Positions 23,206-40,743 of a DNA stretch of 52,150 bases are shown one piece after another. Under the pieces are notes generated by a model. That model did not search any database. It was given only the letters and a program-made list of their open reading frames with translations, and had not been told where the DNA came from. Origin of the DNA: an uncultured Bacilli bacterium (lineage in GTDB: Bacteria; Bacillota_I; Bacilli_A; RF39; UBA660); contig CANRJV010000003.1 of assembly GCA_947631045.1 (NCBI GenBank), positions 1 through 52,150 on the forward strand, written 5' to 3'. Each line of letters begins with the position of its first letter. The stretch's first letter is position 1. A program made the position numbers and the translations under genes.

Positions 23206-23334
23206 GCAGTTTAATTAAAGCTGCTTTTTTTGTCGAAAATTGGTGAAAAAATAGAAGTTTTGACAACGTTTGTCGAAAGTGTTGAAAAGAATAAAAATAT
23301 CCGTAAAATAGAGACCTCGAAAAGAGGTGAAATT

Positions 23335-24198
23335 ATGCCCACTATGGTGAATAAAAAATTTTATGATCTAAAATATGATTTAGTTTTTAAAAGTATTATT
23401 GTAGATGATAATGATTATACTATCATGAATAATATCTTGTCGGATATCTTAGAAAAAGAAGTAAAAGTCAAAAGATATTTAAATAGTGAATTAAAAATAA
23501 AGAATAAGAAAATAAAAGGAAAAAGATTAGATATAATTGCAGAGACAACCGAAGGAGTTCTAATAAATATCGAATTAAATATAAATTATGATAAAAATAT
23601 TAAAGAAAGGAATTTAAATTATTATGCTACATTATATACAGAAGGATTAGAAAAAGGAAATGAATATATAGAGATAAAAGAAATAATCCAAATCAATTTA
23701 AATTTTAATGAAGGGAAAAATAAGACTTTAAAAGAAGAATACTTACTTCGGAATAAAGCAGGAAAGATATTAGTGAAAAATTTTAGAATCATCAATGTGA
23801 ATATTGCAGGATATAAGGAAAAATGGTATGATAAAAATATCAAAGGAGATAAGAGACATATCTACTTAACAATGCTGGGATCAAATAAAGAAGAGATAAA
23901 AGAATTAGCGAAAAAAGATAAGAAAGTAAAAGAGGTGGAAGAAAAGATGTTAAAATTTAATGAAGATGGAACAATAACAAATTTAATGACACCAGAAGAA
24001 GAGGATGCCTTAATGGAGAGAATAATAAGAAGAAATGCTTACGAAGATGGAGTTAAAAAGGGTATGAAAATGGCATCTAAAGATACTATAAAAAATACTG
24101 CTATTTCGATGATAGAAAGAAACTATCCATTAAAAGATATTTCTGAAATAACAAAATTAAGTATAAAAGAATTAAAGAAATTGCAAAAAGAAAAATAA
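23335..24198 (+). CDS. Rpn/PD-(D/E)XK nuclease family (transposase_31/PDDEXK_2-like)
   Basis: DLVFKSI, RLDII..INIE, ERNLNY, C-terminal A..M....I..IT.LS..E; ATG 23335 after GAGGTG. Confidence 0.8.
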   Translation: MPTMVNKKFYDLKYDLVFKSIIVDDNDYTIMNNILSDILEKEVKVKRYLNSELKIKNKKIKGKRLDIIAETTEGVLINIELNINYDKNIKERNLNYYATLYTEGLEKGNEYIEIKEIIQINLNFNEGKNKTLKEEYLLRNKAGKILVKNFRIINVNIAGYKEKWYDKNIKGDKRHIYLTMLGSNKEEIKELAKKDKKVKEVEEKMLKFNEDGTITNLMTPEEEDALMERIIRRNAYEDGVKKGMKMASKDTIKNTAISMIERNYPLKDISEITKLSIKELKKLQKEK

Positions 24199-31465: not shown

Positions 31466-31633
31466 ATGAAAGTAAAAGTAATTGATGAAGAATGTGAAAG
31501 AGATTTAGAAACGAGTATCAATGATTTTTTAGCCAAAGATATTGATGTAATTGATATAAAGTATCAAGTTGCTATTGGTGTAAGTGGCGAAGAGCAATTA
31601 TATTGTTTTAGTGCAATGATTATTTATCATTAA
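31466..31633 (+). CDS. cse60: Sporulation protein Cse60 (DUF2758), 55 aa, absent from the ORF track
   Basis: MKVKVIDEECERDLETSINDFLAKDIDVIDIKYQVAIGVSGEEQLYCFSAMIIYH; GGTGA RBS. Confidence 0.85.
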   Translation: MKVKVIDEECERDLETSINDFLAKDIDVIDIKYQVAIGVSGEEQLYCFSAMIIYH

Positions 31634-32565
31634 TTATTAACTAAATTAAAAGAAGTTATAAAAATATTATCTTTTAAAGTAGAATATTCCATAACTAATT
31701 TATTTTTCTTTTTAACCATAATAAGACCAATGGTAGGGTTATGATTAGATTGTTTTAACTTACGATCAATGAGGTTAGTATAAAATTCAACTTGACCAAT
31801 ATCTTGTGGTTTAAGTAAAGCATTTTTAACTTCTACCACTATGAAAGAATTAAGTAAATAATTAAAGAAAAGCATGTCTATTTTATATGTAGAATCATTA
31901 TCAATAATTTTATATTCATGTCCAATAAGGGCGAAACCCGTCCCTAATTCTAAAAATTTTTGCTCTAACATTTCGATTAATAATTTATGGATGACCTTTT
32001 CATTTAAATTATTTATATCTTTATTTGTCTTAATAATAATCGGGTCTTTAATCATATCTGATAATGTTAAATTATATTTATCCTCTTTATTAGTTATTAA
32101 TTTAATATTTTCTTTATCAGCATAAGATAATCTTTCAAAAGCATTACTTTTAATTTCATTAATTAATTCTCGACTAGAAAGATTGTTTAAAATAATTTGA
32201 TTAATGTAATAATTCCTTTCGCTTTCATTTTTGATAGGTAATAATTGCAATATGTGTGTCCATGTTAATTGGGCAATCACTGATTGCCCAATTGGAAAAG
32301 TAGTATAAAATTGTCTCATATACTTCATATTTCTTATACTATAACCATTACCATATTCTTTAGAAAATATTTCTGACCATTTTTTAATTAAGTTATCACC
32401 ATACTTAGCTCTTTTTTCTCCTCCTTGGGCTTCCATAAGTAATTTACCAATATTCCACTTAGCCATTAAATCATCATAGTTATTTTTATATTCTCTGACT
32501 CTTTTATTTACTTCTGTATTTTCAATAATACTTTTTATTTCATTAAAATAATCTTGTTCATGCAT
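31630..32565 (-). CDS. YhcG/DUF1016 PD-(D/E)XK nuclease family protein, copy 1
   Basis: WNIGK, AKYG, NMKYMRQFY, LTWTH, IKDP, LELG.GF, IDMLFF, VVEVK, GQ..FY. Confidence 0.9.
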   Translation of the reverse strand: MHEQDYFNEIKSIIENTEVNKRVREYKNNYDDLMAKWNIGKLLMEAQGGEKRAKYGDNLIKKWSEIFSKEYGNGYSIRNMKYMRQFYTTFPIGQSVIAQLTWTHILQLLPIKNESERNYYINQIILNNLSSRELINEIKSNAFERLSYADKENIKLITNKEDKYNLTLSDMIKDPIIIKTNKDINNLNEKVIHKLLIEMLEQKFLELGTGFALIGHEYKIIDNDSTYKIDMLFFNYLLNSFIVVEVKNALLKPQDIGQVEFYTNLIDRKLKQSNHNPTIGLIMVKKKNKLVMEYSTLKDNIFITSFNLVNN

Positions 32566-33681
32566 AGTAATTCCTCCAATTGAGGATGTATTATAGCAAA
32601 CATGTTATGTTTATTTTGTCATTTTTTGTCGAAGATATTAAAAAAGAAAAAATATTTCACTATTTATATTTTTTCTTTGATATTATTTAATAATTTAAAT
32701 GAAGTTATATAAATACCTTTATCATTTATATATTTCATAACATATTTATCTTTTTCTTTAACTATTAATATTCCTTCAGTCTTAGAATGATGTTCTTTTT
32801 TTATATTTTTATCTATATAATCCATATAAAATCTTACTTGACCTATTTGCGATGGTTTAAATTCTTCGTTTTTAACCTCTACAACTACATACGCATTAAT
32901 TTCTAAATTAAAGAATAATAAATCAGTGTGATAAGTTTTATTATTTATTTTTAATGGATATTCATGACCTATTAAAGCAAAACCATTACCTAATTCTAAG
33001 AACCCATCTTCAATCATTTCAATTAATAATTTATGAATAGCCTTCTCATTTAAGTTATTAATATCTTTATCTGTTTTAATAATAATGGGATCTTTAATCA
33101 TATCAGATAATGTTAAACTATAATTTTTTTCTTCATTAGTTATTAATTTAATATTTTCTTTATCAGCATAGGAAAGCCTATCAAAAGCTTTACTTTTAAT
33201 TTCATTAATTAATTCTCTTTTAGACAAATTATTTAAAATAACTTGATTAATATAATAATTCCTTTCATTTTCATTTTTAATTGGTAATAACTTAATAATA
33301 TGAGACCATGTTAATTGGGCAACCACTGGTTGCCCAATTCGAAATGAAGTATAAAATTGTCTCATATACTTCATATTTCTTATACTATAACCATTACCAT
33401 ACTCTTTAGAAAATATTTCTGACCATTTTTTAATTAATCCATCACCATATTTAGCTCTTTTTTCGCCACCTTGAGCCTCAACTAATAATTTTCCAATATT
33501 CCATTTAGCCATTAAATCATCATAATTATTTTTGTACTCTCTGACTTTTTTATTTACCTCACTGTTTTCAATAATGTTTTTTATTTCATTAAAATAATCT
33601 TGTTCATGCATAGTAATTCCTCCAATTGAAGATGTATTATATCAAACATGTTATGTTTATTTTGTCAGTTTTTGTCGAAGA
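31920..33681. repeat. Tandem duplication of yhcG including its promoter (offset about 1046 bp)
   Basis: Leaders 32562-32635 and 33608-33681 nearly identical; high similarity continues to about the GHEY codons. Confidence 0.85.
32664..33611 (-). CDS. YhcG/DUF1016 PD-(D/E)XK nuclease family protein, copy 2
   Basis: Same motifs; near-identical N-terminal two-thirds to copy 1. Confidence 0.9.
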   Translation of the reverse strand: MHEQDYFNEIKNIIENSEVNKKVREYKNNYDDLMAKWNIGKLLVEAQGGEKRAKYGDGLIKKWSEIFSKEYGNGYSIRNMKYMRQFYTSFRIGQPVVAQLTWSHIIKLLPIKNENERNYYINQVILNNLSKRELINEIKSKAFDRLSYADKENIKLITNEEKNYSLTLSDMIKDPIIIKTDKDINNLNEKAIHKLLIEMIEDGFLELGNGFALIGHEYPLKINNKTYHTDLLFFNLEINAYVVVEVKNEEFKPSQIGQVRFYMDYIDKNIKKEHHSKTEGILIVKEKDKYVMKYINDKGIYITSFKLLNNIKEKI

Positions 33682-33688
33682 AGAAAAA

Positions 33689-33710
33689 AATTCGCAAATT
33701 TTGCGAATTT
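33689..33710. terminator. Intrinsic terminator for the minus-strand virB6 operon
   Basis: aattcgcaa-att-ttgcgaatt preceded by an A run on +. Confidence 0.7.
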
Positions 33711-33933
33711 AATCATCATTGGAATTATCTTTAAAATATCTATATCCATAAATTATGGTAAGAGCTATACTAATTAGTAAAAATACTAAACTGAAAGTCA
33801 TTTCTAATTTTAAAATAAGAATTATGAGAAATAATAAAGAGAATAATATGCTTTGAATAAAATATACTTTGTTATTATTTTTTGTTGGTTTTTGTTTTGC
33901 TTTTTGAACTGTTTCTTTTTGATTTTTTTTCAT
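33709..33933 (-). CDS. Small two-TM membrane protein
   Basis: Basic N-terminus plus two hydrophobic helices; overlaps the upstream gene. Confidence 0.55.
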   Translation of the reverse strand: MKKNQKETVQKAKQKPTKNNNKVYFIQSILFSLLFLIILILKLEMTFSLVFLLISIALTIIYGYRYFKDNSNDD

Positions 33934-34252
33934 TTTGTTTACTCCTTAGAATAATTCCATATAAGCCATAGATAGAATAAATTAAAATTACTAATAATAC
34001 AAATGCTAATGGGAATTTTAAATATAAAGACCATTTAATATATATAATGAATGTAGATACTAAAGATATAATTAAAGCATTAATTAAGCTACAAATTATT
34101 TTTGATCTTTTTCGATCTTTCTCATTATCTTTTAATTTGAATCTGGCAATTAAGTAATCATATTCATTGATCATGAGTATTTTAAATTTTTTAAGTAAGA
34201 AGTAATCTAATATAAATATAATTACATAGATAATTAAAAATACTGTTATCAT
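33875..34252 (-). CDS. Small three-TM membrane protein
   Basis: Hydrophobic segments; GAGGT RBS right after the virB6-like stop. Confidence 0.65.
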   Translation of the reverse strand: MITVFLIIYVIIFILDYFLLKKFKILMINEYDYLIARFKLKDNEKDRKRSKIICSLINALIISLVSTFIIYIKWSLYLKFPLAFVLLVILIYSIYGLYGIILRSKQNEKKSKRNSSKSKTKTNKK

Positions 34253-34262
34253 CGATTACCTC

Positions 34263-36860
34263 TTAACTATTTTTGTTTCCTGGTTTTTTAGCATTTTTTC
34301 TTTGTAGTTCGTTATATTGTCTATTGATGTTTGCTTCAGTAACATCAGCAGCTTTCTTTAAATATTTAACAAAGTCTGCAGCAGTGTCCATTGTTGCTTT
34401 AGTTTCTTTGACACCTTTAAATATACCTTCGACACCGTCGTGGAATGATTTAACCACAGCAGAAGTACTTAAGTCTTCTAATTGTTTGTTTAACATGCTA
34501 ATATTTTCACTCAGAATACGAGCTTCTTGTTCTGCTCCTTTATGTGATTGAGAAGATGTAACGAAAGCATCAGCTAAATCTTTTCTGGCTTTCTTAAATG
34601 CTCCGTCTGCATCAGCAAGTTCTAACGCAGATGCTCCTTTTTTCTTTAATTCTTCAATTCTAGCTTCCATAACATCTAAACGATATCTACTTTCAAAATC
34701 TCTAAAGTCTTGCTTAATTTCTGCTGCCTGAGCATCTAATTTTTCTCTTAGTTCTTTAGCTTTATCTCTTTCTTGTTGTGATAAAGATGTATCGTTTTCT
34801 CTTTTTATGGCCTCTTGCCATTTAGCGTAGTTATTTTCAATTTCTTCAGTTATTTCTAATTTTTTACCACTAGCATCTCTTACAGCATATCCATTTTCAT
34901 CTACAAGCATTGTTCCAACTCCACCTCTAAATTCGTATTTATGCTTGTCAACGTAATCCTCACTTGTTGCTTTGATAGATTTAATAGTTTTAGTTAATTC
35001 ATCAACAGCTTCTTTTTGTTCTTTTAAAGCTTGATAATCTGGTTCAAAACCAATATAACCTAAGAATAAATCGAAAGCATCTTTGCCAAGAGCTTCAGCT
35101 ACATCTGGAATATTATTTCCGTGATCGGCAATATACTTACTAATATCTTTGCTATGTTTTTCAGATTTAGCAACCGAAGCATTTACTCCACTCATCATAT
35201 CTTTCCAGTTTTTAGCTTTATAGCCACTAACAGCAGAACCAATTTGACTTGATATTACACCTGGAATTGATTTGGCTGCACCAATAAATGGACTTGCTGC
35301 TAGTCGCAAATTAGGGTGACTAATAGGCTTACCTTCAGCATCAGTAGTTTTTCTATGCCATTTGCCTTGTTCATCTTGTTCAAAGTTATTTTTAACTTCG
35401 CCGCCAACACCTCTAGCAAATCTTTTGGCTCCGCCAAGAACAAATCCAGCTCCAGCAAAGAAACCGCCTTCGGCTAATTTTTCTCTTAAATTTAATTTAA
35501 TATTTCCTGAGTCTAAACCTGTTAAATCTTTAATAATTTTTGGAATTTGCTTAGCAAAGATAACAATACCTAAAATAGTTATTGTCGATAAGATTGGATG
35601 AGATATTCGAGAAAGTTCATCAAAATTAATTCTTCCAACTAGTAAGACTATGGCGCATACAATACCTACTCTTATAAATACCTCGAGCCAGATACTGATA
35701 ACTTTTTTAAACCAAGTTTTCATTAAATCCTTTTTGCTAGGAATAACACTTATCATAAAACATATTGGTGCCAGCATTTGATAGAAAACTAATTTAGCCT
35801 GTCTTACGACAACATCAATACAGAATCCAATTATTAATGTTACTAATATTCCGATAACAATAGTAGAAATAATAGGAGTATAATGGAAGTTTCCTTGAAC
35901 TATTTCATCAGCAAATAACGAAATTTGAGAGAAGTTTCCGTATAATGTAATTGCTTGCAAAGCATTTGTCCACGTGTATTCTTTGGCTGTAATGCTTGCA
36001 ATACCCCCGACTAGGTTCAATGCCCCAATTTGACCTACTCCACACATCAATATGGAAGCACCAACTCCCCAAGGTGTTGCAAAAATGGTTATTAATGATG
36101 AAATAATACATCCTGTAAATCCAGCCCAAAATTTAGCTTTTCCATCCCACCATTCAGAAACATCAGTTGTCCACTCTTCTTTATCGTTACATTCACTATC
36201 TGGTGTTCCTTCCTCGCAATTCCATTCTTCATAATATTTACCATCATGAACTTCAGCCATTTCCCCATCATAAGTATCAGCATCTCTTTTTAAAGGATAC
36301 ATTAATCCGCTGATAACTGTAGCAACCATTTGGTTAGATCTTAAATTCAAAATTTCGGAAGTTAAATCGATATCGGTCTCATCGATAGGAACTGGCTCTC
36401 CCTCGTTTTCGCCCTCTTCATTAACGTATTGAATATCTACCTGTTCGGCCTCTAGAATAAATTTCGGAACAACATTGTATTCCAGTAAAGCGTTTTGAAC
36501 ATCAATTAAAAAATAAAAAATAGTTGGTAAAAATATGGTTGCAATCATAGCAACGATGAATCTAATTCCCATTTCTCTAAGCTGTTTATTACTTTGACTG
36601 GCATCGGAATCGACCATAGCTTTAAGAAGCATATAAGATATTAGGAATAAGGCAACAACGCCCATAATAATATACATGTTTTCATAAATATTTTCAAAAG
36701 CATCAGCTCTAAATAATTGGTTTTGAGCAAGTCTTATAAAAGTTCTATAAAATAAATTGAAAGCCCAATAGCCAATTGAATCAATCCACAAAAGAAATGA
36801 AACGATGGGTCTTTCAAGGAAATCTCCGGCATTAAGTATACTTATAAAGTCTAACAACAT
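34263..36860 (-). CDS. VirB6/TrbL-like polytopic T4SS channel protein with long C-terminal coiled coil
   Basis: IDVVVRQAKLVFYQMLAPICFM....P, W.K..IS....VFIR, FAKQIPKII..L.G; AGGAGG RBS. Confidence 0.75.
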   Translation of the reverse strand: MLLDFISILNAGDFLERPIVSFLLWIDSIGYWAFNLFYRTFIRLAQNQLFRADAFENIYENMYIIMGVVALFLISYMLLKAMVDSDASQSNKQLREMGIRFIVAMIATIFLPTIFYFLIDVQNALLEYNVVPKFILEAEQVDIQYVNEEGENEGEPVPIDETDIDLTSEILNLRSNQMVATVISGLMYPLKRDADTYDGEMAEVHDGKYYEEWNCEEGTPDSECNDKEEWTTDVSEWWDGKAKFWAGFTGCIISSLITIFATPWGVGASILMCGVGQIGALNLVGGIASITAKEYTWTNALQAITLYGNFSQISLFADEIVQGNFHYTPIISTIVIGILVTLIIGFCIDVVVRQAKLVFYQMLAPICFMISVIPSKKDLMKTWFKKVISIWLEVFIRVGIVCAIVLLVGRINFDELSRISHPILSTITILGIVIFAKQIPKIIKDLTGLDSGNIKLNLREKLAEGGFFAGAGFVLGGAKRFARGVGGEVKNNFEQDEQGKWHRKTTDAEGKPISHPNLRLAASPFIGAAKSIPGVISSQIGSAVSGYKAKNWKDMMSGVNASVAKSEKHSKDISKYIADHGNNIPDVAEALGKDAFDLFLGYIGFEPDYQALKEQKEAVDELTKTIKSIKATSEDYVDKHKYEFRGGVGTMLVDENGYAVRDASGKKLEITEEIENNYAKWQEAIKRENDTSLSQQERDKAKELREKLDAQAAEIKQDFRDFESRYRLDVMEARIEELKKKGASALELADADGAFKKARKDLADAFVTSSQSHKGAEQEARILSENISMLNKQLEDLSTSAVVKSFHDGVEGIFKGVKETKATMDTAADFVKYLKKAADVTEANINRQYNELQRKNAKKPGNKNS

Positions 36861-37048
36861 CTTTTACCTCCTAAAATTTATATTTAGTTCTAATTTATTA
36901 TATATTTTAAGGATAAACCTCAAAAAAAGTATAACATAATTTTAAAGAAAATAATACTAGTTTTTATTTAAATCGTACTTTAATTTAATAATAAGTATTT
37001 TATTTTGATTAAATGATATGTTATAATTTTTTATAGGTAGGATTTATT

Positions 37049-38188
37049 ATGAATAAAAAAGGTTTAATTTGTTTTTTAAAATATTTTTTATTAACACTTT
37101 TTTTAAGTATTTTAACTGAAGAAAAAGTTTTAGCTGCTGATTATGAAGTGTCTTTATCTAAAGGGCATAACTATGTTTCGGTTTCCAGTTGCCCAAATTC
37201 TGAAAATAAAAAGCTTGTTTCTGGTGATGGTACAACATACTATGGATGTGTGTATCGAACATTAGGTGGCAGCGGTAGTACTTCGGGAGCTAAATGTTTA
37301 TCTGGGTATGAAGCGGTTCCTCATACTTCAAGTGATAGTAATTATACAATTTATTTATGTAGAAAGCCGAAATATGAGTATGTTGCTAAATTTGATACTA
37401 ATAAAGAATATACGAATGTTGTAAGTAATGGTTGCCCTGAGGGTCCGGGATTAGTGGGCAGAAAATTAGTTTCTTTTACTAATTATTCAAGGCAAAGATA
37501 TGCTTGCGTATATGCTAGAAATATAAATTCCAATACTCAAACTCCTTCAATTACTTGTCCAAATGGTGAAAGTGCAGTTGCTTTAGAAGCTAAAAAGGAA
37601 GGGCAATCAAGTTACAATTATACAGTTTATGCTTGTCAAAAAGCATCTTCCGGAGATGGTAGCGGAGGGTCCGGCAGTGGGGCCGGCAGCGGATCTGGCA
37701 ATGGTGGATCTGGAGCAGGATCTCAAGGAAGTGATACTGGAAGTGATAAAGAACAAGGCGGAGGTACAATAGTTCCAAACGTTGATCCTGATTGGCATTA
37801 TACACCATCAACTCCAAGCCAAAATTATGATAGCGCTTGTTCCATTGAAGGAACTAGAAAAGCTGTTCTTTTAATTGGTAAAGCGATAACTTTAGCTACT
37901 TATATTATTCCTCTTATAATTATTGTCTTAGGAATGATTGATTTTGGTAAAGCTGTTACATCTAATGATGAAAAAGCCCAATCAAAGGCAACTGGCACTT
38001 TGATTAGAAGAATAGTAGCGGGCATTGTAGTATTTTTAATACCAACTTTATTAAAAGCTTTAATAAATGTTATAAATGTTAATTCTTTAATATATGATAA
38101 AGATAATTATGATGAATGTTTAAATTGCATAATGTATCCATTTAATGATTGCGCACCAAGTCAAAGTGAGTCAAATAGTGATGATTAA
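37049..38188 (+). CDS. Signal peptide + two 4-Cys domains + Gly/Ser linker + C-terminal VirB2/TrbC-like pilin
   Basis: VLA-A signal; IIPLIIIVLGMIDFGKAVTSNDEK..SKA...LIRRIVAGIVVFLIP.LL helix-loop-helix. Confidence 0.7.
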   Translation: MNKKGLICFLKYFLLTLFLSILTEEKVLAADYEVSLSKGHNYVSVSSCPNSENKKLVSGDGTTYYGCVYRTLGGSGSTSGAKCLSGYEAVPHTSSDSNYTIYLCRKPKYEYVAKFDTNKEYTNVVSNGCPEGPGLVGRKLVSFTNYSRQRYACVYARNINSNTQTPSITCPNGESAVALEAKKEGQSSYNYTVYACQKASSGDGSGGSGSGAGSGSGNGGSGAGSQGSDTGSDKEQGGGTIVPNVDPDWHYTPSTPSQNYDSACSIEGTRKAVLLIGKAITLATYIIPLIIIVLGMIDFGKAVTSNDEKAQSKATGTLIRRIVAGIVVFLIPTLLKALINVINVNSLIYDKDNYDECLNCIMYPFNDCAPSQSESNSDD

Positions 38189-38190
38189 AT

Positions 38191-38214
38191 AAAATAGCCA
38201 TTGTGCTATTTTTT
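38191..38214 (+). terminator. Intrinsic terminator
   Basis: aaaatagc-cattgt-gctatttttt. Confidence 0.6.
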
Positions 38215-38276
38215 AATGGACTAAATAAATAGTTTTTGATAAAATGAAGATATAATAGATATGAAGGTGCTAATCT

Positions 38277-39512
38277 ATGAAAACAAAGACATATTTTAAA
38301 GTATTAATTCTATTTTTTATAATAACATTTTTAGCAGGTTGTGCTGCTAAATGGAGTGATATTAAAAGTAAGTATGGTGACTTATTAAAAAGCGGAATTA
38401 ATTGTACATATACTGCTAATTCTAATATGTTAGATGATTTAAAAACAGTGAATATTAAAGCAAATAATAATGGAATTACTGTAAAATTAAATAGTTCTAC
38501 TCATACAATAATAAGTCCAGATGTTAAATTTAATGGAACCATAAATTATAATGGTAGAAATATAAGTATTTCTAGTAGTGCTGCTCAAAGTTTTTTTGAT
38601 AAGTATGAATCTACTGGTAAGTGTCCAAATTATATTTATCTTAATACTGATGCTCAAGCTGGTTCAAGTGAATTTAGAACTGAGGATTGTACGAGAATGA
38701 GTTATTGTAGTTCATATATAAATTCATCTAGTGGTGGTACTAGTTCTAGTGGTAGTTCTAATAAATGTGAAACTAATTCTAAATGTTCTAAAGAGTGTGC
38801 CATAAATTGTAAATCTTTAGAAAAAGATAAGGATAATAGTTCTGGTAAAACCGGAATAGAATTAGGTTATTATAAAGACGGAACAAAAACTAAAAAATAT
38901 TTTTTAATCAAGAAAGCCGATAGTTCGGTTAGTAGTGGTGTAAGTATAAAAACCATTACCGAGGATGATGGCAACTGGCCAGTTATTGTTGATGATTTAG
39001 TTAGATATGAAATATTAGGAGAATCAATTAATAAAATATGGCTTGATGATAATAAAATAGGAGAAATTAAATTAACCACTAATCCTTCGATTAATGATTC
39101 CACATATTATATAGGAGATATTAATAATGATTCTATGCCAGGAACTGATATTACTGATAAGCTTAGTACAGTTAAAACTTTAATTACTATTCCATTTCCT
39201 GGAGCGGATGATTGTCAAAGTTTACTTGGAAGTCCCAATGATACGGGATCTCCGGCTTATTATTTAGTTTTTGCTTTTAAAGTAGTTAGATATGTAGCTA
39301 TAATTTTATTAATTGCATTATCAGTAATAGAATTTGTGACAGCAACAGCTAGTAGTGATCAAGAATCGATAACTAAAGCCACAAAAAAGACTATAAGAAG
39401 ATTCGTTTTATGTATAGTAATATTTGCTTTACCAACGTTATTAAATTTTGGTTTAAATTTCTTATACGATCGAAAAATGGAAGTCTGCGGAATTACACAA
39501 ACTGAAAAATAA
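38277..39512 (+). CDS. Lipoprotein-type signal (LAGC) + Cys-rich ectodomain + C-terminal VirB2-like pilin
   Basis: FLAG-C lipobox; VRYVAIILLI.LSVIEFVTATASSDQE.ITKA.KK.IRRFV...VIF.LP.LL. Confidence 0.7.
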   Translation: MKTKTYFKVLILFFIITFLAGCAAKWSDIKSKYGDLLKSGINCTYTANSNMLDDLKTVNIKANNNGITVKLNSSTHTIISPDVKFNGTINYNGRNISISSSAAQSFFDKYESTGKCPNYIYLNTDAQAGSSEFRTEDCTRMSYCSSYINSSSGGTSSSGSSNKCETNSKCSKECAINCKSLEKDKDNSSGKTGIELGYYKDGTKTKKYFLIKKADSSVSSGVSIKTITEDDGNWPVIVDDLVRYEILGESINKIWLDDNKIGEIKLTTNPSINDSTYYIGDINNDSMPGTDITDKLSTVKTLITIPFPGADDCQSLLGSPNDTGSPAYYLVFAFKVVRYVAIILLIALSVIEFVTATASSDQESITKATKKTIRRFVLCIVIFALPTLLNFGLNFLYDRKMEVCGITQTEK

Positions 39513-40698
39513 TGCTATTTATTCATCACTTTTAAACTTTCATTCATTTACACCCAATGAATATTTTGCTATAATATTTTTGTTAATTATTTTTAAACAA
39601 AAATTGAAACGTGGTGAAAAAATGAAAAATTTAAAATATCTAATATTATTAGTGATTTCCTTTTTTTTCAATGTTACAATTTTTAATGCTTATACTTGTA
39701 CTTATTCGTCTAATCAAGTAGTAGCAGATTCAACCAGTGGAACAGGTGAAAGATATTATGGATGCGGCCAATTCAAACTTACAATAGATAAAAACGGTAG
39801 CATTTCTTCAACTGTTATTTATAGTAATAGTGGTATAAAGACTGGAACGTTTGTAGTTACACAAGATTGGAAAGATTTTATAAATGGTGATTTTCATCAA
39901 GAATGTCCATCAGTTTATTCTGGTAAAGATGAAAGATATTCGTCATGTAATATATATATTGGATCCGGAAATTTGACTGACCCGAGTGACAGCAATGTTA
40001 AATATGTTTTTGATTATGGAAAAAATTCTCTTGATCCGGAAGATGAAGAGGAGGAAAAGCCGAATGTTGGTACTGATACTTATAATATAGGTGGTACTCA
40101 AGGTCATAAATATTATAATGCCTTAAGCTGTGCTAATGGTTATAGTTTAAAAAATATTTATATAAGTGCAGCTGATACAAGCGCAATTGGTTGTGTTGCC
40201 GATAAATTAACAGGAGATTATAATAATATAACTTGTCAGGCTGGTTCATCTATTGGTTATTATGGTATTAAAACTGGTGATACATCTAAACAATATCATA
40301 TTGTTGTTTGTGAAAATATAAATACTAATAAAGAAGAATTAGATGAGCAATTTCAAGGTTCAGGAAATATAACTCATGTTCAAACTATTCCATTTCCTGA
40401 TATTACTGATTGTCAAACTTTACTTGGAAGTCCCAATGATACAGGATCTCCGGCTTATTATTTAGTTTTTGCTTTTAAAGTAGTTAGATATGTAGCTATA
40501 ATTTTATTAATTGTGTTATCAGTAATAGAATTTGTGACAGCAACAGCTAGTAGTGATCAAGAATCGATAACTAAAGCCACAAAAAAGACTATAAGAAGAT
40601 TCGTTTTATGTATAGTAATATTTGCTTTACCAACGTTATTAAATTTTGGATTAAATTTCTTATACGATCGAAAAATGGAAGTCTGTGGAATTACGCAA
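39186..40698 (+). repeat. 315-bp near-identical direct repeat (39186-39500 and 40384-40698) encoding the pilin module
   Basis: Both copies run actattccatttcctg...ggaattac.caa with only scattered mismatches, mostly at the 5' edge. Confidence 0.92.
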
Positions 40699-40743
40699 TC
40701 AGGAATTAATACTAGTGAAAATGAAGGTGCTGGAAGCCAATAG
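39622..40743 (+). CDS. Signal peptide + Cys-rich ectodomains + C-terminal VirB2-like pilin
   Basis: ATG 39622 after GGTGA; FNA-Y signal; pilin module almost identical to that of the upstream gene. Confidence 0.7.
   Translation: MKNLKYLILLVISFFFNVTIFNAYTCTYSSNQVVADSTSGTGERYYGCGQFKLTIDKNGSISSTVIYSNSGIKTGTFVVTQDWKDFINGDFHQECPSVYSGKDERYSSCNIYIGSGNLTDPSDSNVKYVFDYGKNSLDPEDEEEEKPNVGTDTYNIGGTQGHKYYNALSCANGYSLKNIYISAADTSAIGCVADKLTGDYNNITCQAGSSIGYYGIKTGDTSKQYHIVVCENINTNKEELDEQFQGSGNITHVQTIPFPDITDCQTLLGSPNDTGSPAYYLVFAFKVVRYVAIILLIVLSVIEFVTATASSDQESITKATKKTIRRFVLCIVIFALPTLLNFGLNFLYDRKMEVCGITQSGINTSENEGAGSQ

Follow-up and report, generated by a model that had tools for sequence, protein, structure and literature searches.

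The question raised by this locus is why two neighbouring protein-coding genes should each hold, in frame, a perfect DNA palindrome whose two arms change together and alter the protein as they do so. The genes lie on a stretch of 52,150 nucleotides, here called the window, from an uncultured Bacilli bacterium (RF39; UBA660; assembly GCA_947631045.1, contig CANRJV010000003.1), and they encode two members of the YhcG/DUF1016 family of predicted nucleases. The answer reached here, from sequence comparison and predicted structure, is that the encoded protein probably binds the palindrome in its own gene, and that the arms are probably kept matched in part by hairpin-templated copying.

On the + strand, the palindromes read AATTGGGCAATCA-C-TGATTGCCCAATT (32267-32293) and AATTGGGCAACCA-C-TGGTTGCCCAATT (33313-33339), each with perfect 13-bp arms around a single centre base. 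They are unlike at exactly two mirror positions (T/C and A/G), equivalent to one compensated base pair, and both lie in frame, starting on the last base of codon 91 and ending on the middle base of codon 100, so that the peptide following RQFY is IGQSVIAQL in the first gene and IGQPVVAQL in the second. This pair of perfect palindromes with two symmetric, residue-changing substitutions had been described in the original prediction and was confirmed. Of 200 composition-matched windows generated with a first-order Markov model, 3 contained any palindrome with a loop of 1 and arms of at least 13, while the real window holds two. When folded as single-stranded DNA, the palindromes reached -11.9 and -13.0 kcal/mol versus -3.1 and -3.4 in shuffles (z of -5.5 and -6.4, with 0/200 shuffles equally good), with a predicted stem of 12 bp and a 3-nt loop. 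No further occurrence of either exact palindrome was identified in the 1.31-Mb genome.

The host open reading frames (ORFs) share 76% protein identity and 79.1% DNA identity. Both were matched to DUF1016_N (Pfam PF17761, with the PF06250 family) at 113.2 and 115.6 bits (cut-off 32.8; E 1.3e-32 for paralog 1) and to the YhcG_C PD-(D/E)XK domain at 118.1 and 111.1 bits (cut-off 32.5; E 4.2e-34 for paralog 1). The nuclease motif D...E-x-K was found with D230 and K247 invariant in family alignments and with 'VVEVK' in both window proteins. Each also matched the PADLOC candidate defence family PDC-S02 (E 2.1e-73 and 5.3e-67, respectively).

Examination of the rest of the assembly (1.31 Mb in 81 contigs, 27.8% G+C) returned 13 matches to the window protein, namely ten close paralogs, one distant paralog and two small fragments, with the close paralogs arranged as tandem arrays on contigs C3, C5, C6, C31 and C32. 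At gene nt 273-299 each of the ten close paralogs carries a perfect palindrome; nine different sequences are represented, which follow the pattern AATT-N7-CA-(G/C)-TG-N7'-AATT, with arms of 13 bp in eight of them, 9 bp in one and 8 bp in one. The inner arms are approximately 60% G+C and use G+C-rich codons that are rare for such a genome. The palindrome sits in the most variable part of the gene, where the mean pairwise difference among paralogs is 0.27-0.44 over nt 207-320 and 0.355 for the palindrome itself, compared to a gene mean of 0.177.

The palindromes of the window are local cases of an element of wider distribution. Matches were found in 34 of 36 same-genus genomes, many of them multi-copy (from a draw of 60 relatives), and Pfam DUF1016_N was present in 33 of 299 genomes scored in a phylum-level draw. 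A pattern scan of GTDB returned 80 loci, including Clostridia, Veillonella, Bacteroidota, Spirochaetes, Collinsella, Victivallales and Ignavibacteriaceae; the pattern was built on a six-sequence alignment and represents one well-conserved multi-phylum subfamily, on which the cross-phylum counts lean, and a 15-sequence alignment gave no stretch conserved enough for a pattern search. Homologues were anchored by profile hidden Markov model on the invariant Trp of the LSWSH motif, giving 143 distinct segments of 57 nt, in which positions are counted outward from the palindrome centre (d1, d2 and so on). The majority of the sampled DUF1016 genes, from several phyla, were found to carry the palindrome. 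Positions d2-d8 are Watson-Crick paired in 116-131 of the 143 segments, with at most four pair types per position, and 93 segments are perfect over d2-d8. On average 9.39 of the 12 positions d2-d13 are paired, versus 6.15 (pooled) and 4.89 (uniform) in synonymous-codon nulls, and shifting the assumed centre reduced the d2-d9 score from 6.75 to 1.1-3.2. In a MAFFT alignment of the segments, 83.3% of cells were paired versus 62.8% in shuffles (0/500 as high), covariation was 0.493 versus 0.139 in shuffles (0/500) and at most 0.105 with slid partners, and doubly changed cells numbered 342 against 102.5 expected. An excess of symmetry and covariation among homologues had been set beforehand as the test of the original prediction, and a clear excess was found; its claim of compensatory change was right and understated, as the ten close paralogs and most homologues keep their symmetry through paired changes that alter the protein.

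Typical forms are TTCCAGACAGTGTCTGGAA (coding FQTVSGK), TGCCAGACACTGTCTGGCA (CQTLSGK) and TTCCAGTCACTGACTGGAA (FQSLTGK), in the last of which a paired change turns Thr..Ser into Ser..Thr. The palindrome is highly conserved in a widespread single-copy subfamily. The yhcG gene of E. coli K-12 (L179:7828-8955) carries AAAGATTTGGCAGACGCTGTCTGCCAAATCTTT at codon 126, with 15-bp arms and a 3-nt loop, as the last of three QT.S palindromes in series (codons 103, 116 and 126), the first two being shorter. The loop region of this gene is expanded compared to the window genes. At two loci (L135:550-606 and L132:550-606) the centre codon is lost, with one still forming the even palindrome GTCCAGACGTCTGGAC (8+0+8), indicating that symmetry survived a deletion of 3 nt.

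This symmetry is maintained in DNA and not in RNA, because pairing is strictly Watson-Crick and wobble is avoided at sites where it would be free. At free synonymous sites the ratio of Watson-Crick to wobble choices was 75:2 (d7), 99:1 (d8), 57:0 (d11) and 41:5 (d4). At d7, for example, TTC stands opposite G in 75 of 78 cases and the wobble codon TTT in 2, even in A+T-rich genomes. Position d1, which is unable to pair in a hairpin, is the only one with appreciable G:T (109:15), and among stem mismatches G:T (21) is no commoner than A:C (26). Of the two marks of a structured RNA, compensatory change and tolerance of G:U, the family therefore has covariation with wobble avoided, and no Rfam family reached threshold (best 23.3 bits, gathering score 60).

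A candidate reader of such a site was identified in the protein itself. The AlphaFold model of paralog 2 (66-sequence alignment; predicted local distance difference test (pLDDT) 85.5, predicted template modelling score (pTM) 0.64) has helices at 77-89 and 102-108, and the palindrome-coded residues 90-101 form the loop that joins them, modelled with lower confidence (75). The C-terminal domain resembles NucS/EndoMS, Bax1, Can2/Card1 and restriction enzymes (Foldseek E 1e-6; VIA Z 11.3 to NucS/EndoMS), with Z 5.5 to Hjc, and a Foldseek search with the whole model returned matches to this nuclease domain only. Matches of the N-terminal domain among the top 50 were all to ParB or KorB, namely ParB-parS 6s6h (Z 7.2 over 101 residues), Spo0J 1vz0 (6.7) and the KorB-operator structures 1r71 (Z 5.5) and 8qa8 (Z 5.3). 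A profile search of the PDB placed '...sNLknMRqFY...LSWSH..LL' on '...HIANHLRLL...LSMGHGRTLL' of Spo0J 6sdk at E 0.15; none of the PDB sequence searches reached significance (best E 0.11-0.15). The Pfam domain HTH_ParB (PF17762) was matched at E<=5 by 41 of 66 members, most of them sub-cut-off and the best at 5.8e-5. Alignment with hhalign of YhcG against 23 ParB/Noc helix-turn-helix (HTH) domains from this genome and its relatives gave a probability of 90.6% and E 1.3e-6 over 74 columns, with YhcG S76, I77, K81 and Y82 aligned to ParB S172, R173, A177 and N178, and Q85, S103, H104 and I106 aligned to R181, G201, H202 and R204. The ParB N-terminal CTPase domain (ParBc) was absent among the five Pfam families found at E<=5 for the window protein; by these comparisons, it is only the HTH that YhcG shares with the ParB family proper.

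In ParB, according to the available text of Jalal et al. (2020, PMC7383237), two domains bind the palindromic parS symmetrically, with alpha-4 in the major groove and alpha-6 also making contacts; residues 162-207 form the specificity core, residues 173, 178, 201 and 204 are among the parS contacts, and specificity is set by a few residues (173, 179, 184 and 201). Because of the hhalign alignment taken together with that work, the hypervariable residues 70-107 of the paralogs are the predicted homologue of the ParB specificity core, and the palindrome occupies the middle of the DNA that codes it.

Residues outside the palindrome-coded stretch were compared with arm bases in 127 full-length homologues and were found to covary with them. 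Counted as both, arm only, residue only and neither, a TCC arm (d8-d6) occurs with F/Y at aa 81 as 25, 0, 3 and 99; an AAC arm with Q at aa 81 followed by F/Y as 21, 0, 0 and 106; a TGG arm with R at aa 81 as 9, 1, 3 and 114; and a GCC arm with Q at aa 81 as 22, 1, 22 and 82. Sign tests on independent pairs were performed on a FastTree tree of the remaining protein, from which helix and palindrome columns were excluded. For TCC with F/Y, 13-14 independent pairs pointed the same way and 0 the opposite (p ~2e-4), for AAC with Q and F/Y 9/9 did so (p 0.004), for TGG with R the result was 7.3 versus 0 (p 0.016), and for GCC with Q p was 0.03. No association was found between a GTG arm and K at aa 81 (p 0.6). 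At the inner base, aa 103 is T with d3 T (16/20) and S with d3 A (76/77), with independent pairs for d3 T/G and T103 numbering 11.2 the same way and 0.1 opposite (p ~0.001); aa 103 was informative for d3 alone (0.72 of 0.88 bits), and both cross-controls (TCC arm against aa 103, and d3 against aa 81) gave p = 1.

Mutual information was ranked over all alignment columns with the palindrome-coded residues set aside, against a background of approximately 0.6 bits. The highest bias-corrected values with d7-d9 belonged to aa 81, 82, 77, 78 and 85 (1.41, 1.07, 0.97, 0.81 and 0.72 bits), with no stand-out signal at aa 88 and 89, which lie nearer to the palindrome in the DNA. Residues 77, 82, 103 and 106 fall on ParB R173, N178, G201 and R204, which are listed as parS contacts in the available text of PMC7383237. 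The face of the predicted recognition helix with the outer bases, and the predicted start of alpha-6 with the inner base, is the geometry of ParB on parS.

Copies of the palindrome were also found outside the gene. A search for a second copy of each locus's own 17-mer in short flanks, allowing one mismatch, gave a bare copy at 3 of 93 loci. At L092 the copy precedes the start codon by ~25 nt and adjoins the ribosome-binding site, at L053 it follows the gene by ~200 nt in A+T-rich non-coding sequence, and in a same-genus genome (L018:3690-3790) two different palindromes, CAATTGTTGACACACTGTGTCAACAATTG and CAATTGCGTACACACTGTGTACGCAATT, lie 24 nt from each other in a non-coding stretch close to the end of a contig, one of the two being the palindrome of the neighbouring gene, an arrangement that resembles a site array for two paralogs. 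These bare copies are taken as sites and not as gene remnants because their flanks are unrelated to the gene flanks.

The genome holds 90 perfect palindromes with arms of at least 10. Those with arms of at least 13 in long open frames number 15, and all lie in genes of YhcG (8) or ORF6N (7). The genes of the ORF6N proteins (PF10543; ~425 aa with two ORF6N domains) hold a perfect palindrome in frame in each of these domains (for example TAAGGTCACAAATTGTGACCTTA and ATTTGAGGTTCCAAATTGGAACCTCAAAT), coding peptides such as LRSQIVTLK and NLRFQIGTSN. Covariation is seen between the arms, the A/T centres exchange Ile and Phe, bare copies lie ~43 and 199 nt upstream of genes, and the pattern is likewise present in other genomes (L180, L183 and L191). 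No relevant paper on an ORF6N palindrome was found among titles and abstract openings.

ParB/Noc genes at 24 loci were inspected as a control, and neither a conserved coding palindrome in the HTH-coding part nor an internal parS-like site was identified. At two of the 24 (L214:1605-1621 and L215:1605-1621) the recognition-helix codons (..HIAN..) form, in the same position, an 8+1+8 palindrome whose outer bases are unlike. The genome under study has two ParB-family genes, with the one on contig C1 showing Noc-like residues at the equivalents of ParB 173, 179 and 201. An intergenic 30-bp perfect palindrome with the canonical parS core TGTTTCACGTGAAACA was found at C1:39798-39827.

From these observations we infer that the protein binds the palindrome, a reading that rests on the DNA-level covariation, the ParB-like head, the coupling of HTH residues to bases and the bare extragenic copies. 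The palindromes of the window are instances of a DNA-level symmetric element held at a fixed place in most YhcG/DUF1016 genes, within the DNA coding the loop between the predicted recognition helix and the next predicted DNA-contacting helix of a ParB-type head. It would probably be bound by a two-fold symmetric dimer of the encoded protein, and site and reader would be inherited as one unit and change together, making the ten paralogs ten putative reader-site pairs of different specificity. Binding may let the protein repress its own gene through an operator-like or in-gene site, or may provide a self-mark in cis comparable to the BstA aba element, while hairpin-templated copying, through template switching or arm conversion, may keep the arms identical and flip the centre. 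A fuller account can be put forward tentatively, with less confidence than binding itself. YhcG may be a site-specific nuclease with a ParB-type HTH and its site in the DNA of its own reading head, the two being inseparable by recombination and diversifying in lock-step through hairpin copying. The in-gene copies, together with bare promoter-near ones, might provide a self-mark for autorepression or aba-like self-immunity, the paralogs might be a library of orthogonal specificities arising from conflict with phages or mobile elements, and ORF6N might have the same design independently.

Several observations weigh against the binding-site interpretation. The palindrome is missing from the distant paralog on contig C14 (32% identity) and from the PNFD/PDYN...LSWSH subfamily to which it belongs, mostly in genomes of 23-26% G+C. 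This genome is without an extragenic YhcG-type palindrome, and its half-sites are unclustered, consisting of scattered chance 9-mers only. The Z-scores of the N-terminal domain are below the safe level of the tool for helical domains (for which Z under 8-13 is weak), and the palindrome-coded peptide itself aligns with ParB alpha-5, unlisted as DNA-contacting in the available text of Jalal et al. (PMC7383237). For d3-d4 the best residues were aa 107 and 106 (0.80), barely over a background of 0.6-0.69. The helix codons lie 24-45 nt from the palindrome, and whole-segment gene conversion could therefore couple them; the specificity states are scattered on the remaining-protein tree, with 17-22 trait changes. 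Contacts within the protein could be an alternative source of coupling, as T or S at aa 103 goes with a small or large residue at aa 95, and in leave-one-out prediction two bases gave aa 81 in 85 of 127 homologues, only slightly more than the 73 of 127 from the encoded residue 93. Finally, symmetry is not clearly lost faster in stop-codon copies than in intact ones, so that any selection tied to gene function is putative. Two half-sites in the window (37429 and 37601) were considered and rejected, being located in an unrelated ORF with no palindrome.

The rival that survives best, although we consider it improbable, is that the palindrome has no function and perpetuates itself. After its formation in an ancestral gene, hairpin-templated copying (quasi-palindrome correction) would keep the arms identical, and the palindrome would be frozen by purifying selection on the protein, the arms lying in different codon phases such that a synonymous change in one is non-synonymous in the other; the loop would tolerate the result. 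Strictly Watson-Crick pairing is what templated copying would give, and the centre base behaves accordingly. In the 143 segments it is C in 67, G in 55, A in 14 and T in 7, close to an equilibrium of G and C, and when segments with the same 9-bp arms are paired (207 pairs) the centre is unlike in 107, with 96 of those being C/G, compared to a mean of 75/207 pairs unlike at third codon positions outside the arms. Such flipping is far from ordinary substitution because the G/C change is a transversion that swaps Val and Leu; it fits the expectation from palindrome inversion, and equally that from an indifferent two-fold symmetric reader. The nearest match of paralog 1 (genome G009), and likewise that of a C6 paralog (G007), has the centre base as its sole difference. 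The same base was polymorphic in gut metagenomes, where 32280 C>G is all that separates a 186-nt contig of run X6 from the window over 32185-32370 and run X5 contains both forms (2.4 of 4.9 depth), while position 33326 showed no variant among the metagenome matches listed; these data are assembled contigs, beyond whose reach lie rare variants and event rates.

A palindrome without function would also agree with the lower-confidence loop that it codes and with the subfamily that lives without it. The stop-codon copies can be read in both directions, as they mostly retain symmetry and yet carry uncorrected arm changes, including stop-creating ones at L153 and L165 that remained in place in one arm without spreading to the other; inner mismatches were present in 4 of 7 such copies versus 50 of 143 segments overall, a comparison that favours neither selection nor automatic arm correction. 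What such a palindrome leaves unexplained are the bare non-coding copies with gene-unrelated flanks, the position-specific HTH coupling with null cross-controls, and the confinement of long coding palindromes in this genome to two families of DNA-binding proteins, and a further argument of survivorship would be needed for the G+C-rich inner arms.

It is rather less probable that the palindrome is a site of breakage or recombination, at which an extruded hairpin or cruciform is cut by the Hjc/NucS-like nuclease of YhcG or by a host enzyme, seeding gene conversion of the variable cassette among paralogs; this reading comes near to the built-in diversifier of the original prediction and could coexist with binding. 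The resemblance of the nuclease domain to structure-specific nucleases, the flips of the centre base, the scatter of specificity states on the tree, and the position of the palindrome in the most variable segment with far less variable sequence on both sides would all agree with it, as would the tandem arrays with their fragments. However, the palindromes are unlike between paralogs and hence unusable as shared crossover points, the widespread single-copy subfamily conserves its palindrome instead of diversifying it, and no metagenome contig joints fell at palindromes (two joints in run X6 lie elsewhere), contigs being poor evidence either way. Truncated copies in the arrays were identified at C6:1329-1808, C6:1242-1343 and C32:13524-13661. 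Over their first 200 nt and upstream of the genes, the paralogs differ pairwise by 0-14%, far less than over the remaining gene (window 31630-33611; C5 and C6), which suggests, on sequence grounds, that the 5' ends of the paralogs have been homogenised by gene conversion.

Least probable is an mRNA hairpin selected for control of translation, stability or processing of the nuclease message, since, for all that the covariation is of a kind usual for RNA helices, a 12-bp stem with a 3-nt loop is predicted and G:T is common only at the unpairable d1 (15/126 free choices), protein-neutral wobble is avoided, stem G:T is no commoner than A:C, the G/C centre is interchangeable as for a duplex site, bare non-coding copies lie both upstream and downstream of genes, and no Rfam family reaches threshold. 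The suggestion in the original prediction of a functional hairpin or self-operator thus gains support in its DNA part, through the ParB-type HTH, its covariation with bases and the bare copies, one of them just ahead of a start codon, and finds none in its RNA part, wobble being avoided. Its other suggestion, of a built-in diversifier, stays conjectural: flipping of the centre fits hairpin or template-switch activity, with no sign that such mutagenesis is adaptive.

The binding-site reading invites comparison with ParB-parS, Noc-NBS and KorB-OB, as the YhcG head aligns with the ParB HTH and the homologous positions covary with palindrome bases. Unlike ParB, YhcG is without a detected CTPase domain and has a PD-(D/E)XK nuclease fused instead, and unlike ParB sites its candidate site is odd-centred, 17-27 bp in length and in frame inside HTH-coding DNA. 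The OB site of KorB has an odd G/C centre, and in B. subtilis one parS is located within spo0J. In quasi-palindrome template switching (the Ripley model, followed with E. coli reporters), hairpin-templated synthesis equalises the arms of short inverted repeats. The paired changes, strictly Watson-Crick arms and centre flips of the yhcG palindromes would fit a template-switch hotspot; such hotspots, however, are known as sources of mutation, while the yhcG element is fixed at one codon position across phyla and covaries with a DNA-binding helix. We know of no quasi-palindrome hotspot that is conserved as an element of a family or that covaries with a DNA-binding helix.

The closest parallel for a defence-type gene is BstA, whose aba is a short DNA element that overlaps its own coding sequence, acts as DNA and is specific to the cognate variant (Owen et al. 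2021, PMC8585504, available text). Its 63 bp comprise 29 bp upstream and the first 34 bp of the gene, and it needs terminal direct repeats (PMC8585504). Both BstA, a defence protein with a DNA-binding N-terminal domain and an element at its own locus (PMC8585504), and the candidate defence gene yhcG (PDC-S02), with its paralog-specific palindrome in codons 91-100, have variant-specific DNA within the gene. The domain of BstA is, in contrast, KilA-N-like and not a ParB HTH, and aba acts on multicopy replicating prophage DNA (PMC8585504), whereas the yhcG genes are chromosomal; the available text of the BstA paper makes no mention of palindromes. In nematomorph mitochondria, perfect inverted repeats occur within protein-coding genes that are functional, and each of the two arms codes for conserved protein (2019, PMC6649704, available text). 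These measure up to 284 bp, with many per genome in many genes and no link to a DNA-binding protein in that text, unlike the situation described here, where a gene has one short site and the genes belong to a single bacterial family, plus ORF6N.

DUF1016/YhcG has been described only as a predicted nuclease with restriction-modification genes often nearby, and as a neighbour of inversion-targeted restriction genes (PMC9881135), the available text of which makes no mention of palindromes; among the DUF1016 and YhcG papers listed, a palindrome is absent from titles and abstract openings. Unlike that description, the yhcG genes of this genome form a ten-copy family away from restriction-modification genes, none of which adjoins the arrays in their gene context. 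The arrays are set among housekeeping genes and adjoin type IV secretion-like genes, and the copy on C31 adjoins a type IV secretion system pilin gene.

The coordinates of the features are collected in the table below. In the window, positions 33878-43464 hold genes without Pfam matches (125, 865, 379, 411, 387, 107 and 187 aa), ending in a TraG/VirB4-like ATPase (41683-43464), and may represent a conjugative element abutting the yhcG pair. A gene of a PD-(D/E)XK 'transposase' family (Pfam PDDEXK_2, E 1.7e-18) was found at 23230-24195, 7 kb from the pair. An A+T-rich palindrome, AAATTCGCAAATTTTGCGAATTT (33688-33710), lies between yhcG paralog 2 and an upstream gene for a small membrane protein; it is terminator-like and gave a weak, sub-threshold Rfam match resembling a CRISPR repeat.

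Table. Features of the yhcG pair (window positions) and the ORF6N loci (positions within each named locus).
Feature	Position	Strand	Basis
yhcG/DUF1016 paralog 1, 311 aa, predicted ParB-type HTH head and PD-(D/E)XK nuclease	31630..32565	-	Pfam, PADLOC, D...EVK motif
yhcG/DUF1016 paralog 2, 315 aa	32664..33611	-	Pfam, PADLOC, AlphaFold pLDDT 85.5, C-terminal domain NucS/EndoMS-like
Palindrome 1, 13+1+13, codes P-IGQSVIAQ-L	32267..32293	strandless	sequence, folding
Palindrome 2, 13+1+13, codes R-IGQPVVAQ-L	33313..33339	strandless	sequence, folding
Centre base of palindrome 1, C/G polymorphic (Val/Leu swap)	32280	strandless	public gut metagenome contigs
Paralog 1 codons 74-89, predicted HTH recognition helix, ParB alpha-4 equivalent	32299..32346	-	hhalign, covariation
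Paralog 2 codons 74-89, predicted HTH recognition helix	33345..33392	-	model helix 77-89, hhalign, covariation
Paralog 1 codons 101-107 (LTWTHIL), predicted equivalent of the start of the ParB alpha-6 helix (LSxGHAR)	32245..32265	-	alignment; aa 103 covaries with d3
Paralog 2 codons 101-107 (LTWSHII), predicted ParB alpha-6 equivalent	33291..33311	-	alignment, covariation
Hypervariable segment (gene nt 200-330): predicted recognition helix, palindrome and alpha-6 start	33282..33412	-	pairwise differences among paralogs
ORF6N loci	L174:3960-4620 (G000 C8:16959-17617); L175:412-803; L176:3270-3715; L177:3820-4220; L178:2940-2975		

The large YhcG/DUF1016 nuclease family, of which E. coli K-12 has a member, is uncharacterised. 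If the binding-site reading is true, sequence alone would give the likely DNA target of every member, together with a table of pairings between reader residues and bases, and the ten paralogs in one 1.3-Mb genome would be a ready-made specificity panel. It would also offer a second example, after BstA-aba, of a defence-type gene with its own specific DNA element in the coding region. For annotation and for evolutionary studies, the palindrome serves as a warning that DNA symmetry can lie behind odd codon choice and conserved 'motifs' such as QT[VL]S, and the family would provide a clear bacterial case of a nucleic-acid constraint shaping protein sequence across phyla.

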